A stretch of 63,476 nt of DNA, filler included, from Octopus bimaculoides (GCF_001194135.2; 7 parts of 7 records of this genome joined end to end with filler, not necessarily neighbours in it); one strand, 5' to 3'; shown: positions 26,600 through 63,476, numbered from the whole stretch's first letter. The notes: generated from the letters alone by a model not told the origin. Made by a program: numbers and translations.

Positions 26600-26835
26600 C
26601 TCTCTCATCAGGGTCAGTAGCTATCGAACGCCGACGAAGGGAAATAACCCTGAAATCCGGATCCGTTCGTGCTGCAGATCATGGTGAGAGGGATAACTTC
26701 CCTTGGCAAACAGGACACAGTCGTGTGTCGATAAGCCAGCTGGAGGAGATGTCCTCCTGGGGCTAAAGGCAACAGTAACATCCACCCCTAGGGGTCAGCC
26801 ACACTTAAGTGGCAATATACTACACTGTATCGTGC
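26600..26835 (+). mobile_element. Compact structured repeat: hammerhead followed by four-hairpin motif
   Basis: The 3' half is homologous to 33322-33431, 33478-33587, 56640-56745 and 63346-63476. Confidence 0.6.
26625..26669 (+). ncRNA. Type I hammerhead-like motif 3 (all stems perfect; U4C)
   Basis: CGAACG-CCGACGA-AGGG-AAATAA-CCCT-GAAA-TCCGGA-TC-CGTTCG: stem I 6 bp, stem II 4 bp, stem III palindrome AUCCGGAU, AUC triplet. Predicted cut between 26663 and 26664. Confidence 0.7.
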
Positions 26836-27283
26836 AGTTACTGTTAATACTTCATTTAGAGAATTAACATTGCTTATATATATATANNNNNNNNNNNNNN
26901 NNNNNNNNNNNNNNNNNNNNNNNNNNNNNNNNNNNNNNNNNNNNNNNNNNNNNNNNNNNNNNNNNNNNNNNNNNNNNNNNNNNNNNNNNNNNNNNNNNNN
27001 NNNNNNNNNNNNNNNNNNNNNNNNNNNNNNNNNNNNNNNNNNNNNNNNNNNNNNNNNNNNNNNNNNNNNNNNNNNNNNNNNNNNNNNNNNNNNNNNNNNN
27101 NNNNNNNNNNNNNNNNNNNNNNNNNNNNNNNNNNNNNNNNNNNNNNNNNNNNNNNNNNNNNNNNNNNNNNNNNNNNNNNNNNNNNNNNNNNNNNNACGCA
27201 CACACACGCACGCACACACACGCACGCACACACACGTGCACACACACGCACAACGAAAGCACGTACGCGCGCACACACACACT

Positions 27284-27314
<31 letters not shown>

Positions 27315-27370
27315 ACACAGACACATACACACATATACACACACACGCGCACACACACACACAAACACAC

Positions 27371-27423
<53 letters not shown>

Positions 27424-27613
27424 AAAGCATACATACATACATACATACGTACATACATACATTACATGCAAGATGGTCTCCCCTGCTATGATTGTATCGA
27501 CAGTAAGATTGACAACGACGTTGTAGTTTTGGGTGGTTTTGGCGGCGGCGCTTGTCTAAGTAGTGGGTAGTGGCAGCAGTGGTTGCGGCGGCGGCTCCGG
27601 CAATGGCGATGGT

Positions 27614-27644
<31 letters not shown>

Positions 27645-28116
27645 GTGATGGTGGTGGTGGAGGTGGTGGATCTGGCGAAATTATAGTAACGGTTGTAGTT
27701 TTGGTGGTTATGCTTAGAGGTAGCTGTGGTAATTTTGGCTATAGTGGTTTACATTCATGGATGTTATGAAAGTGGGTTTCAGGAATAATATACATGTGGG
27801 GCTTACTTGATAGAAGCAGCTGGGCTGATAAAAACGCGCCAGGGCTGATACCTTTTTTTATTTTTCCGGCACAGATGGCATGGTAACCGGTGAACAGCAG
27901 GCTTTCTCCACAAACCAGACCCCTCCTCCAACATTATCCTTTATTAAATTTATTTACTGTGATTATATATTTTATATAGTGTTTTTTTCTTTACCCCTCT
28001 GTTTTAATAGTCACGAATTTTCAAATTTCCTTTTTTTTTTGCGGCTTAGTTGTGTACAATACACACACACACACACACACACACATGTATATATGTATAC
28101 GTTTATGTATATTTAA

Positions 28117-28187
<71 letters not shown>

Positions 28188-28356
28188 TATATTTATATAT
28201 TCATATATATAAGTATATATTTATATGTATATGTATTTATGCATACGTATGTATATATGTATGTAAGTAGATGTAAGTGCGTGTGTGGAAAGACAGGGAA
28301 AAGAGAGAGGGGGAGAGAGAGAGAAAGAGAAAGAGAGAGAAAGAGAAAGCGAGAGA

Positions 28357-28388
<32 letters not shown>

Positions 28389-28834
28389 TTGCACGTACAT
28401 GCTTTCCACATAATTTCAATACGGCGCAAGTTGCAAAACCACATTGTTTACTAACGAGATCGAGGCTAAATTATATGTTTATGGAAAACAGATATACATT
28501 ATAAAAAAATAAGCAAATAAAAAAGCAAGTGTGGGGCTGTGTGGAACCACATTGTCAGCGCATGGGCTGAAAATTAGACAGACTAGTTTAGATCTAACAG
28601 ATTTTGTAGTAACAATAAATAAGATGATAATAGTCTTTTGGAGGACAAAAGATGGCTATTCTTTCTATGTTGAATATCTCACAGCGTAATCATTTTCTTA
28701 CCTTTTTCTGCTCACATGGACATAAAAACAGTTGCGTATTTACTTTCTATAATGAAACTAAACTGTGTGCTAATTAATAAAATATGTTCATAAGCGCAGG
28801 CATGGCTGTATGGTAAGAGGGTTGTTCCTCAATC

Positions 28835-60336: not shown

Positions 60337-60469
60337 ATCTAAAGAACAAGAGGAATTCCAGAATATAAACGGTCTATTCCACAATGCTTCTAAACAATTT
60401 TTCACCATATTCCACCAAATGTTCTATTAAATTCCACACTGTATTCCATCATCGTTATATTCAAACATA

Positions 60470-60850
60470 TCTTTTATCTTTTACTTGTTTCAGTCATTAG
60501 ACTGTGGCCATGCTGGGGCACCACCTTGGAGAATTATTTAATTGAATGACTTGGTCTCAGTTCTCATTTTTTAAAGTCTGGTACTTATTTTATCAGGCTC
60601 TTTTGTTGAACCACTGAGTTACAGGGATGTAAACACACCAGCACTGGTTGTCAAGTGGCGGTGGTGGACAAAGATACACACACACACACACACACGATAG
60701 GCTTCTTTCAGTTTCCCTCTACCAAATTCATTTAGAAGGCTTTGGTCGGCCCGAGGCTTATAGTAGATACTTGCCCAAGGTGCCATGCAGCGAGACTGAA
60801 CCTGGAACCATGTGGCTGGGAAACAAGCTTCTTACCACACAGCCATGCTT
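60470..60850 (-). mobile_element. SINE family B, full length
   Basis: Colinear with the other B copies. Confidence 0.85.
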
Positions 60851-60923
60851 GTAAATTTCAAGAGGAGAGAGAGAGAGGGGGAGAGACGAGAAGAGAGAGG
60901 GGGAGAGACGAGAAGAGAGAGAG

Positions 60924-60959
<36 letters not shown>

Positions 60960-61362
60960 AATCAGTGGATGACATAGAGAAACTCATTAACTCATCGTCA
61001 CCATGATAACCGTTAAGGTTGAAACTTCCTACTTACGTTGTTGGTGACAGTGGATGTAAACAATTTCATCGACGTATATAGTCAAAGCATAATCCCAATA
61101 TAAACTACAATAAAAACACAATAGTGTCAACATACGACAAACAACAGCTTACCAAATATCATTACATGATAATCTCCAATATAAATACAGTAATGTCAAC
61201 ACATAACAACAATACTATGCAAAATAACGTTATATAATATACCAATATAAACTACAATGTAGATACAAAGTAAATTGGTCTATCCAATAGTGTTATATTA
61301 TTCCATCACTAATTTACTGGGTAATTTATGCAATACGTTTGTGGATAGTTGATAGGTTATAT

Positions 61363-61408
61363 GTGATACTGATGAAAGAACAATAACTCCTGAAACATGG
61401 ATATACAC
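61363..61408 (+). ncRNA. Decayed minimal hammerhead-like motif 4
   Basis: GTGATA-CTGATGA-A-AGAA-CAATAAC-TCCT-GAAA-CATG-GA-TATACAC. One substitution from an ACAUGU palindrome (U16.1 to G); stem I 6 bp with a bulge; one stem II mismatch. Confidence 0.5.
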
Positions 61409-61688
61409 CCATTATCTATTTTTTTTATTTTTATCTCAATCACACTGTTTACATAAAGGCACTCATATATGAAACCTAACTCTCAGTGCAGGCTGTGAAT
61501 TCCATAAGAAATCTACTTGCATACCCCTGTTCCAGGGGTATGCAAGTAGAGAATAACTGTTGCTACCCAAGGACAAAAATCATGTTACACAGTGTAATAC
61601 ACCAAATACTATTTGTGGTAATTAGACATTTACAAAATAAAGGTTGGCAATGATTTCTTCAAAGTTTTGGACTATTAGTCTGTTAGAT

Positions 61689-61985
61689 CAGGGGTTTTCA
61701 AACTTTTTGACTTGCGGACCCCTTTATATTTCAGGCTTTACCTTAGGGACCCCCTTATAAACGCTTATGAAATTTATACATAAATATTTGCTTAAAATAA
61801 CATATATTTTTACATTTATTTATTTAACAGTATTTAACAAATAGGTTTATTGTCAATTAAAAGATTTCGATTAAAAAACATATATAAAATCAAATTGCCC
61901 ATAAAAAGTATTTGCTGTCTACGGACCCCCTGTCTTGTCCTTGCGGACCCCCTGTGGTCCGCGGACCACAGTTTGAAAACCCCTG
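61689..61985. mobile_element. hAT-family MITE, 297 bp
   Basis: Perfect 15-bp TIR CAGGGGTTTTCAAAC / GTTTGAAAACCCCTG; 8-bp TSD TGTTAGAT / TGTTAGAG (7/8). Confidence 0.9.
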
Positions 61986-63275
61986 TGTTAGAGGAACTCA
62001 CAACAAAACAANNNNNNNNNNNNNNNNNNNNNNNNNNNNNNNNNNNNNNNNNNNNTTAATTAATTAANNNNNNNNNNNNNNNNNNNNNNNNNNNNNNNNN
62101 NNNNNNNNNNNCTTCAGCCGCAAACACTGCTAGTCCAAAGATTACATCACAAAAGAAAAAGTACACCCATTATAATAGGTTTATCACATCCCTTTAAAAA
62201 GGTATCTCTGCATAAAAGTTCATTGAATTTCAAAAATCTGCCCATGCTGTACCACAATTCAGCACAGAGTGAATGTTAAATAGATTGGATTGAGTTTATA
62301 TTTAACTAGCGTGATCAAAGGTAAAAAATAAAGTAAAAGATAAAAAAATAAAACATAAAATATGAAAGTAATAGAAGTCAAACCGATAGTAATAAAAGTA
62401 AAAATAAGGATAATAAAGTTAGATACATATATAAATAAGATTTAGCAAAATTGGAATAAAGTAACAAAAGAAATAAAAACATAAAGTAGAATAAGAGATA
62501 AAGAAATAAAATTGTAGTGGTCATAGATAATTTCTTAGCTAGACCACTCGTTGAAATATAGATTAAGGTTGTAATTTGATATTGTTGTGATGAGTGGTCA
62601 GTTTACCCAAACACACCACTAAAAATTCCTAGCTTTATAAACTTAGGTATTACATGGGTACATACACTTACTTAGAAGTCATATCATATGTATATGTGTG
62701 TATACACACACACTCATACAGATCCACCTACTAACATGCTCAAGCCTGTACCCGTATGCCTCATTATGCAAAATTCTAAATATATGAATATACACATACA
62801 TCTCCACACATCTATAGTTACACCCTAGTAACCATATCCATACACTCAACATCCACATATCCTTAAGCACACGTCCAGATATAGATATATCTCCATGTAT
62901 GGTATCAGCATACATGCACTCACGTCCATCTATGTATACACACATACAATACACCTTATAAGCGTATATCTTGATTTTGAGTACATAACAGTTATATTTA
63001 ATATTTAATATACTATTCTCAATAGATTGAGTTACATATATTCTTAAAAAATTTTTTTTTTTTTAATTTTTTATATCTGTGTTATATATATATATATATA
63101 TATATGTTCCGTTTACATATTTGTTTTGCAAGATTTTTGATGTGAAATCGTCTGTTAAAACAGATGTTGTACTTGGGGATGGTCATATTGCCAGTTTAGC
63201 CAATAAAAACACACGCACTGTATATTTGGTGTTAATTTGCTTCAGCTTTATATTACATTAATCTTAATCTTATTT

Positions 63276-63321
63276 CGGCCAGAGTTCTTTCGTCACACTT
63301 CTGTGACCTCATCAGTGGTCC
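63276..63321 (-). ncRNA. Minimal type I hammerhead-like motif 5 (catalytic core intact)
   Basis: GGACCA-CTGATGA-G-GTCAC-AGAAGT-GTGAC-GAAA-GAAC-TC-TGGCC: stem II 5 bp, 1-bp stem III with tetraloop, CUC triplet, stem I 4/5 bp. Predicted cut between 63282 and 63281. Confidence 0.65.
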
Positions 63322-63345
63322 TTTGTTTCCTTCTTTCTTATGTGT

Positions 63346-63476
63346 GACACAGGAAATGTGTCAAGGTTGACAGGAAGTGGTGCTGCTTCCTAGGGCTAAA
63401 TAGCAGTAGTATTATTCCCTTCATTGGACTGTCACCTTAAGTTGACAGCATACAACTACTTTATCATATCACTACT
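63346..63476 (+). repeat. Copy of the four-hairpin motif / foldback arm family
   Basis: GACAC-AGGAAAT-GTGTC..AGGAAG-TGGTGCTG-CTTCCT-AG-GGCTAAATAGCAGTAGTAT..GTCAC-CTTAA-GTTGAC. Confidence 0.75.

Follow-up and report, generated by a model that had tools for sequence, protein, structure and literature searches.

A four-hairpin motif that occurs five times in the 63,476-nt stretch of Octopus bimaculoides DNA analysed here (the window) is best read as an RNA signal bound or positioned by the reverse transcriptase (RT) of a Penelope-like element (PLE). The binding is putative, and we give this reading a slightly better than even chance. The unit that carries the first copy, which includes a predicted hammerhead, is laid out like the non-LTR retrozymes of animals, which are non-autonomous PLEs. 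A sequence-only reading of the same DNA had proposed that an RNA structure is conserved close to the end of an element and, as one option, that it is an RT-recognition signal; the former is supported, and the latter emerges as the most likely reading. Penelope-like RTs are the closest retroelement relatives of telomerase, and how they pick their RNA is barely known, resting on one in vitro study in which the region was mapped by truncation only. Mobilisation of retrozymes by PLEs is likewise a hypothesis based on co-occurrence and pLTR similarity. A compact, compensated fold at a fixed distance from a border makes both PLE RNA choice and retrozyme mobilisation directly testable.

The five copies claimed earlier are present at their positions, and a covariance model built from them recovers exactly these five in the window (104-133 bits; next-best match, 16 bits). 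A motif descriptor written from the copies gives 5/5 matches in the window and 0 in 200 shuffles. Pairwise identity among the copies is 69-95%, and they represent three diverged subfamilies: 1 (copy 1), 2 (copies 2, 3 and 5) and 3 (copy 4). An HMM from copies 2, 3 and 5 recovers copies 4 and 1 (E 3e-8 and 1e-5), and one from copies 1 and 4 recovers copies 2, 3 and 5 (E 5e-12 to 4e-8); since recovery across subfamilies works both ways, the homology between them is not circular. The hairpins (H1-H4) are placed as follows.

26714..26813, plus strand: copy 1 (subfamily 1), with H1 at 26714-26729, H2 at 26734-26764, an A-rich linker with AGTA at 26765-26783, H3 at 26784-26795 and H4 at 26798-26813.
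33322..33475, minus strand: copy 2 (subfamily 2), with H1 at 33437-33421, H2 at 33418-33389, H3 at 33370-33357 and H4 at 33354-33339.
33475..33642, plus strand: copy 3 (subfamily 2), with H2 at 33491-33520, H3 at 33539-33552 and H4 at 33555-33570.
56646..56743, minus strand: copy 4 (subfamily 3), with H1 at 56743-56727, H2 at 56723-56693, H3 at 56675-56664 and H4 at 56661-56646.
63346..63476, plus strand: copy 5 (subfamily 2), with H1 at 63346-63362, H2 at 63365-63397, H3 at 63416-63428 and H4 at 63431-63446.

Copy 2 includes 38 nt of upstream element sequence; joints and loose ends in the reads place 33437-33475 upstream of H1 in subfamily 2. Copy 3 is 5'-truncated inside H1 and lies head-to-head with copy 2. 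Copy 4 begins at H1, adjoining (CA)n, and copy 5 runs up to the window end (63476), so its 3' part is incomplete.

RNAalifold returned the same four hairpins on a sequence-only MAFFT alignment of the copies, with a consensus energy z of -4.9 against column shuffles (1/300 as low). Without adjustment of this alignment, 97.2% of 107 cells are paired, 3/22 pairs are changed on both sides, and the covariation score was reached by 1/500 shuffles. With helices registered by hand, 7/25 pairs are changed on both sides, and compensatory changes are present in three of the four helices. These counts come from five copies representing only three independent lineages, too few for phylogenetically corrected significance. 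The earlier proposal of four hairpins with paired changes holds in that four helices are kept; H1 (6 bp) is almost invariant and so provides no covariation, and copy 3 lacks its 5' strand. The inner H2 of copy 4 has an extra A and needs a bulge; H3 as drawn has only 3 good pairs in copy 5, and each of the four H4 variants is better described by a 4-bp stem that closes a loop of 8 nt. Residues TAAA, AGTA and the 8-nt H4 loop are invariant and unpaired.

Variation was also followed in DNA contigs (X1) and three raw RNA runs (X21, X22 and X23) with the same species label. In X21, 33503 A>G (72/179) is accompanied in H2 by 33509 T>C (64/179), and variants outside the five copies, seen in loose ends of reads and contigs, keep H1 and H2 pairing. 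For three stem variants in X21, 33492 G>T (46/158), 33517 G>A (20/200) and 33556 T>C (32/229), a check that covered 40 of 103 variants turned up no change in the pairing partner.

Both strands of the motif fold better than shuffles (z -4.9 and -4.1), which would suit a structure that acts as single-stranded or extruded DNA, such as an endonuclease target or cDNA intermediate, or an unselected inherited relic. At the DNA level, the tail region of Penelope is recognised by the element's own endonuclease (work cited in PMC11167929), and the covariation is backed by three lineages only. Such explanations are nevertheless very unlikely in our view: compensatory changes reach three of four helices, and the hammerhead strand shows 10 G.U-type cells vs 0 A.C cells, a measure biased by derivation of the structure on that strand. 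The G.U-type variation, the hammerhead on the same strand, and the fixed 3' borders with ragged 5' ends together suggest that the functional (sense) strand is that of copy 1.

In the genome, insertions of subfamily 2 stop at either of two set positions, 17-18 nt or ~71 nt beyond H4. X1 contigs depart from the element into unrelated AT-rich DNA behind 33587 (33 contigs), 33588 (27) and 33642 (41), with an agreement of 0.42-0.49 at these border contigs. Copy 2 ends at the inner border (H4+17) and copy 3 at the outer (H4+71/72); the two form a PLE-type inverted pair with 5' truncation, a single case. The segments behind H4 are as follows.

33588..33642, plus strand: 'tail'-like segment of ~54 nt between the two genomic 3' borders, defined by X1 contig exits.
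26814..26875, plus strand: 3' segment of copy 1, which ends at H4+62, with a weak sign of the inner border at 26830 (H4+17).

Joints at 26830/26831 in subfamily 1 are seen in 1 DNA contig and 2+4 RNA reads only, and the two borders are clear only in subfamily 2. The 5' ends are ragged, and flanks are AT-rich or microsatellite. In RNA, the element continues past the outer border of subfamily 2 (107 and 139 reads behind 33642) and past the end of copy 1 (88 and 71 reads behind 26875), indicating that copying starts internally. A read-start pile-up at 33604 in X23 was set aside, since the alignment breaks there where a subfamily carries an insertion.

The same borders bear on whether the fold serves another job in the same element, such as RNA stability, circularisation, localisation or host-protein binding, with the RT reading no more than the short AC-rich stretch that follows H4. 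The RNAs of retrozymes are circles with extensive self-pairing, closed by ligases of host type (PMC7229834), the invariant unpaired TAAA, AGTA and H4 loop would fit any protein partner, and eight letters just after H4 of copy 5 also occur, by eye, in the PAc initiation loop. We regard this as unlikely, however, since many genomic copies (2-5 in the window) start at H1 or within it and stop 17 nt past H4, and this fixed H4-to-border spacing ties the fold to the copying step.

Every kind of target-primed element shows fixed 3' and ragged 5' ends, and the repeats could instead be SINE-like, mobilised by a LINE (RTE, CR1 or R4/Dong), with the motif a borrowed LINE 3'-UTR structure and the hammerhead an add-on of one subfamily. 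LINEs and SINEs dominate octopus repeats (PMC13282606), and LINE remnants are present in the window, including a restriction-like endonuclease fragment at 1752-1979 for which a search gave at least 150 relatives. Against this improbable reading, the element has no poly-A or short-repeat tail of its own, its RNA runs past both borders with an internal copying start, and the inverted pair of copies 2 and 3 is PLE-like. Nor does it resemble a tRNA-derived SINE: a tRNA scan of the window found none, unit 1 has neither a tRNA head nor Pol III boxes, and the borders abut host AT-rich DNA.

The PLE reading is further supported by the unit around copy 1, whose parts, together with a second hammerhead-like core in the window, are listed here.

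26553..26875, plus strand: copy 1 unit (subfamily 1), 323 of the ~345 nt that make up a non-coding repeat, followed by (TA)n.
26585..26709, plus strand: long interrupted hairpin of ~45 bp in the MFE fold, in which helix I is extended and carries the hammerhead at the top.
26625..26669, plus strand: predicted type I hammerhead matching the full descriptor, with the predicted cut after 26663.
63280..63320, minus strand: worn minimal-hammerhead-like core found by the core pattern, head-to-head with copy 5.

A head-to-tail joint leads from 26875 back to 26553 with 22 letters between, in 54 RNA reads of X21, 47 of X22 and one DNA contig of X1, for subfamily 1 only; no such joint was seen in subfamily 2 on the 215-nt stretch compared with reads. 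Such junctions would be expected from tandem DNA no less than from circles. The unit length of ~345 nt falls in the non-LTR retrozyme repeat range (150-450 bp), GC is 46%, and the unit (z -6.1; 0/200 shuffles) and 26585-26706 (z -5.6; 0/200 shuffles) both fold better than shuffles. There is no LTR/PBS/PPT layout (PBS and PPT judged by eye), and for an open frame of 73 aa neither Pfam nor protein searches gave any relative. Copy 1 unit accounts for 1009 of 12.9 M and 970 of 12.0 M RNA records, a modest level (78-81 and 39 reads per million), with both read orientations equal. Summed DNA word depth (0.9-2.8 million vs ~46 for unique pieces, a rough measure) corresponds to roughly 10^4-10^5 copies; the motif is the deepest-covered stretch, and reads from further subfamilies enter and leave at its edges. 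To judge from the literature searched, no cephalopod-like genome had yielded a retrozyme-like family before, and this would be the first; as a class such elements are already known, and the surprise is moderate.

The predicted hammerhead is the only full-descriptor match in the window (0 in 100 shuffles). It consists of a 6-bp helix I, the core CCGACGA with C at position 4, a 4-bp helix II with a 6-nt loop, GAAA, and a palindromic 8-nt helix III. Helices I, II and III enclose the core, A15.1-U16.1 is present, and position 17 is not G, being C, or A in 157/269 and 153/248 reads. Against the strict core (C3 U4 G5 A6 N7 G8 A9 / G12 A13 A14), 10/11 positions fit, A15.1-U16.1 and H17 counted among them; the core deviates by the C at position 4 and has A-U at 10.1-11.1. 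The C is not among the 40 best-supported read variants and is thus likely the family norm; U4C is a known natural hammerhead variant with lowered activity in vitro (PMC3088659). Local Rfam scans (E<=10) do not detect this hammerhead, and no read-end pile-up was seen at its predicted cut. No hammerhead was seen in subfamilies 2-3, and the tandem unit, too, was seen only in subfamily 1. The core at 63280..63320 fails the full descriptor through a weak helix I and is probably the end of another PLE.

H1 of copy 1 lies 51 nt downstream of this predicted hammerhead on the same strand. The earlier suggestion of an undescribed ribozyme had missed it and gains no support from an element that already carries a predicted self-cleaving RNA. 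A new catalytic RNA, ribozyme or ligase, serving subfamilies with a weak or absent hammerhead is the least probable of the readings considered here. Conserved unpaired purine-rich residues lie between the helices, the neighbouring hammerhead core is atypical and none is seen in subfamilies 2-3, and a helix of 3-6 bp between AGTA and the strand after H4, possible in 5/5 copies, could close a three-way junction. That helix is, however, weak (-0.7 to -5.9 kcal/mol), invariant and without covariation; neither a conserved pseudoknot nor a convincing conserved loop-loop helix was found in the motif; no read ends pile up within it, a weak test in fragmented libraries; and the insertion borders lie outside it. 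Nor is an HDV-like reading supported: its candidate catalytic C, in GGC-TAAA, is paired and covaries, being T in copy 4 with its partner G changed to A.

Rfam searches point the same way. No Rfam family matches the motif, whether across the whole window at E<=1 (129 matches, mostly microsatellite or miRNA noise, none at gathering score) or locally at E<=10 (0, 2, 1, 10 and 2 matches, none a ribozyme, those of one scan reflecting the inverted repeat between copies 2 and 3). The poor fit to HDV-like, twister and pistol layouts noted by eye is upheld around every copy, and twister-sister, hatchet and hairpin models also gave no match at E<=10, though Rfam sensitivity is limited and the hammerhead was missed as well. 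A SECIS, as in Naiad PLEs, is indicated neither by Rfam nor by an AUGA core in the alignment. Pfam scans of 148 of the 261 open frames in the window found no PLE ORF and, above cut-off, only Tc1/mariner HTH remnants; a protein search with the mariner fragment gave no relatives. A first motif pattern scan in viral contigs gave 0 matches, and 8 pattern matches elsewhere (4 metagenomes, 3 prokaryote genomes, 1 viral contigs) were dismissed as chance, with the seed only and the flanking helices missing. By short-word search the motif is absent from the passages covered of the Naiad, Chlamys and Hydra PLE consensus file (PMC8557442 supplement) and from the portions covered of the PMC13282606 supplement, and these searches brought up no autonomous PLE with the motif. 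No description of it was found in the literature searched; the repeat may sit in Repbase or Dfam under another name.

Mobilisation by a PLE would start from the repeats observed here, which are high-copy, non-coding, present in RNA and, in subfamily 1, read head-to-tail. The predicted hammerhead would cut multimers into ~345-nt monomers, possibly circularised; its palindromic helix III suggests cleavage as a dimer. A PLE protein supplied in trans may then bind H1-H4 and the unpaired A-rich linker, nick AT-rich DNA and start cDNA internally, 17 nt or 60-70 nt downstream of the motif. The genomic traces observed fit such copying: 3' borders at two set positions, 5' ends that are ragged, copies 2 and 3 as an inverted pair with 5' truncation, and flanks that are AT-rich or microsatellite. 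Subfamilies would drift elsewhere yet keep the fold, since every copy must pass the same enzyme. More tentatively, and with clear doubt, the four-helix domain could be the RNA module through which a PLE clade is served in cis, common to several subfamilies of retrozymes: a multi-helix, possibly three-way-junction site for a telomerase-related RT, with cDNA start 17 nt downstream. If true, this would explain how animal retrozymes hijack PLEs, and the module may be portable to other RNAs.

Conserved RNA structure beside the 3' insertion border of a non-autonomous retroelement is familiar from the 3'-end recognition stem-loops of SINEs and LINEs; here, in contrast, copying starts internally, a tRNA head and simple-repeat tail are absent, and a hammerhead is predicted. 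Telomerase RNA CR4/5 is a three-way junction bound by its RT. The octopus motif shows no sequence or Rfam match to CR4/5 and its closing helix is weak, but by analogy only, a short helix could close H3 and H4 into such a junction next to the templated region.

Retrozymes have been proposed to derive from PLEs as non-autonomous elements (PMC7229834; bioRxiv 2026.07.22.740005), and the animal non-LTR kind has repeats of 350-390 bp in mussel and 330/350 bp in axolotl (Cervera & de la Pena 2020, PMC7229834). Like these, the copy 1 unit is a non-coding head-to-tail repeat of ~345 nt, with GC below 50%, high copy number, presence in RNA and a predicted hammerhead fold of type I whose helix III is palindromic. 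Unlike them, its hammerhead core has C4 and A10.1-U11.1, and many of the copies lie scattered and have lost their 5' part. Its helix II has 4 bp vs 7-8 bp in S. mansoni PLE min-HHRs (PMC4209133), and a four-helix domain common to subfamilies is not described for retrozymes in the parts of PMC7229834 consulted.

A further close comparison is with the anole PLE Poseidon PAc, whose RT starts internally at two sites bounding a 30-40-bp 'tail', whose protein-binding region was mapped by truncation to structured RNA around the start sites, downstream of a hammerhead, and whose targets are AT-rich (PMC11167929). PLE RTs are sister to TERT, and PLEs are typically marked by tails and by inverted copies with 5' truncation (PMC8557442). 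Unlike PAc, the octopus element has no ORF, a tail of 45-54 nt vs 30-40, a hammerhead-to-start distance of 167 nt vs 85-92, and a four-helix fold vs the single AC-rich stem-loop described for PAc. As in PAc and the pseudo-LTR of canonical PLEs, a hammerhead, here a predicted one, is followed by structured RNA and then by two internal 3' borders, with AT-rich targets, an inverted 5'-truncated pair and an AC-rich stretch before the first border.

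The five copies of a four-helix RNA-like fold (H1–H4) that the sequence-only reading had placed in the window were confirmed at their positions. A covariance model of the five recovered the same copies at 104–133 bits, the next match in the window scoring 16 bits. They form three subfamilies with 69–80% identity between them: copy 1 (26714–26813, +); copies 2 (33322–33475, −), 3 (33475–33642, +) and 5 (63346–63476, +), which are 86–95% alike; and copy 4 (56646–56743, −). Models of one copy group recovered the other group with E-values of 1e-5 to 5e-12. RNAalifold returned H1–H4 from a sequence-only alignment, with 104 of 107 cells paired. 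The z-score of the consensus fold is −4.9 for the strand of copy 1, against −4.1 for the opposite one; folding on both strands also fits a DNA-level structure or a relic, which we regard as quite improbable.

On the sequence-only alignment, 3 of 22 pairs changed on both sides across the three lineages, and the covariation score was reached by 1 of 500 shuffles, a score that relatedness alone can produce. Registering the helices by hand gave 7 of 25 pairs across the three lineages (outer H2, one; inner H2, three; H3, two; H4, one); a covariation test with phylogenetic correction would need more lineages than these three. By these counts, sequence change with pairing kept is seen in H2, H3 and H4; H1 is nearly invariant. 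H4 has 4 bp and an 8-nt loop in all four variants. Read variants lend some held-out support to the predicted pairing. Other H1 stems in loose-end read consensuses retain pairing, one via G·U (105 and 117 reads; 43 reads), and in inner H2 33503 A>G (72/179 and 48/161 reads) occurs alongside partner change 33509 T>C (64/179 and 32/169), as counts per position and not per-read linkage. Stem variants at 33492, 33517 and 33556 lack a partner change among the best 40 of 103 rows, which counts against this support. The undescribed ribozyme offered as one option by the earlier reading is very improbable: scans around the copies gave no Rfam ribozyme match, no convincing conserved pseudoknot or read-end pile-up was seen, and the candidate C of an HDV-like layout is paired and covaries.

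Copy 1 belongs to a ~345-nt head-to-tail unit, of which 323 nt lie at 26553–26875 (+): in reads from two raw RNA runs (54 and 47) and in one DNA contig, 26875 is followed by 22 further letters and then by 26553. This linker closes with a pyrimidine run and CAG, right where copy 1 starts (26552/26553), in the manner of a 3′ splice site; no spliced joints were seen in the reads. Penelope-like elements (PLEs) can have introns in their terminal repeats.

A type I hammerhead fold is predicted on the same strand, 51 nt upstream of H1 in copy 1, with a 6-bp helix I, core CCGACGA, a 4-bp helix II, GAAA and a palindromic 8-nt helix III; the cut is predicted after 26663. Helix I extends into a ~45-bp hairpin that folds at z −5.6. 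The full hammerhead descriptor matched once in the window, in the copy-1 element, and in 0 of 100 shuffles; local Rfam scans did not detect the hammerhead. The letter at position 17 is C, with A in ~60% of reads; either is allowed. Two departures in the core are of consequence: position 4 is C, and 10.1–11.1 is A-U. A U4C change is described as less active in vitro but still viable in a viroid (PMC3088659).

Summed DNA word depth across the unit was ~0.9–2.8 million vs. 46 for unique pieces, or roughly 2–6 × 10^4 copies, a word-depth estimate and not a true copy number; depth is maximal over the motif, where other subfamilies align too. RNA reads of the unit (78–81 per million, both orientations) require neither independent transcription nor circles. 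Across 26330–26885, the two RNA runs showed 78 and 77 A>G + T>C places vs. 29 and 28 C>T + G>A, and a DNA run 25 vs. 23 (Fisher p ~0.016, a comparison spanning different individuals). A-to-I editing of the long hairpin is a possible cause of the excess, which was absent from copy 3 (p 0.82).

Insertion borders are clearest in subfamily 2. DNA contigs on copy 3 exit into unrelated AT-rich flanks behind 33587/33588 (33 and 27) and behind 33642 (41), placing the borders 17–18 and 71–72 nt after H4; shared sequence continues past 33642 in 107 and 139 RNA reads. The first border is where copy 2 stops, the second where copy 3 does. These copies are arranged head-to-head, with a truncation of copy 3 within H1; reads confirmed 33437–33475 as upstream sequence of the subfamily. 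Copy 1 ends 62 nt after H4 and is followed by (TA)n; one contig and six reads faintly suggest a border at 17 nt. Copies 4 and 5 start at H1. The fixed ends would suit a 3′ end borrowed from a LINE, but internal starts do not, and the repeats lack a SINE head and tail, making this origin improbable.

Three lines point to the strand of copy 1 as the sense strand: the same-strand hammerhead, the border polarity, and 10 G·U vs. 0 A·C cells, a count biased by deriving the structure on that strand.

The carriers are quite probably PLE-related non-autonomous repeats. The hammerhead would cleave, probably as a dimer, and a PLE protein acting in trans would mobilise the repeats, binding the four-helix domain and setting a start 17 nt downstream. 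We propose that the motif is kept in diverged subfamilies because such binding would set the start site. This makes a fold bound by the mobilising protein our somewhat favoured reading, in line with the RT-recognition signal suggested earlier; conservation for RNA stability or host binding is a lesser possibility. Direct observation covers the conserved fold, the high copy number, the presence in RNA, the tandem unit with its hammerhead fold in subfamily 1, and the two 3′ borders and inverted pair in subfamily 2. The mechanism has two weak points: the hammerhead is from one subfamily and the clear borders are from another, and a short-word search of the Naiad, Chlamys and Hydra PLE consensuses, as available from PMC8557442, found no autonomous partner with the motif.

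The window is microsatellite-rich animal DNA (GC 23–41%) with assembly gaps, and its repeats resemble those of an octopus. No tRNA was found in it. Of its 261 open frames, 148 were scanned, and the only ones above the Pfam cut-offs were remnants of transposases.

Other element remnants in the window
1752–1979, −: broken restriction-like endonuclease remnant of a non-LTR element, with relatives
13012–13043, +: minimal-hammerhead-like core in another, probably PLE-derived repeat; fails the full hammerhead descriptor
63288–63315, −: minimal-hammerhead-like core in another, probably PLE-derived repeat; fails the full hammerhead descriptor
44550–44780 and 50907–51245, both −: broken Tc1 and mariner HTH pieces (Pfam)

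A broken remnant at 4619–5111 (+) is presumably Helitron-helicase-like. Related ~200–230-nt repeats, partly tandem, form an array at 32500–33870, with further copies at 1961–2106, 29203–29439, 35446–35603, 36267–36423, 38180–38385 and 57335–57528; two of the array units meet where copies 2 and 3 form their inverted pair. Downstream of copy 4, ~310 nt (56330–56645, −) with many small hairpins and no second copy in the window may be the remainder of its subfamily's unit. Two tandem ~150-nt units at 35604–35895 (96% identical, minus-strand TTGAAGA...GAAA core) are possibly another small tandem element. A dispersed ~240-nt repeat with microsatellites at its end occurs at 9329–9505, 22617–22707, 58358–58594 and 58897–59133, with an inverted pair at 58348–59143.

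The element carrying the motif is of a known kind; the undescribed variant worth testing lies in the four-helix domain, conserved and at constant spacing from the proposed start site, together with a C4 hammerhead. The open-access literature searched (Repbase, Dfam and several supplements lay outside its scope) held no description of the motif or of a cephalopod retrozyme. Pattern searches of prokaryote, metagenome and virus collections gave eight matches, all limited to the seed and attributed to chance. In the portions available, a paper on a squid genome gives a total of 235 Rfam hammerheads but no context for them (PMC6962438), and octopus repeat surveys report abundant PLEs, 6.8% in one (PMC13282606; PMC8967140).

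The layout of the copy-1 unit matches that of animal non-LTR retrozymes (PMC7229834, in part), for which an origin as non-autonomous derivatives of PLEs has been argued (bioRxiv 2026.07.22.740005, in part). Available passages list tails and inverted truncated copies as general PLE marks (PMC8557442), and palindromic helix III and dimer cleavage as PLE-hammerhead traits (PMC4209133; PMC6765202). In the anole PLE PAc, the accessible text of PMC11167929 describes AT-rich targets, two internal RT start sites bounding an optional 30–40-bp tail, start sites at an AC-rich stem-loop 85–92 nt past the hammerhead cut, and a protein-binding region around that stem-loop, defined by truncation. Eight letters of copy 5 also occur in the PAc loop (by eye; possibly by chance). 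The stretch from H4 to the first border is likewise AC-rich.
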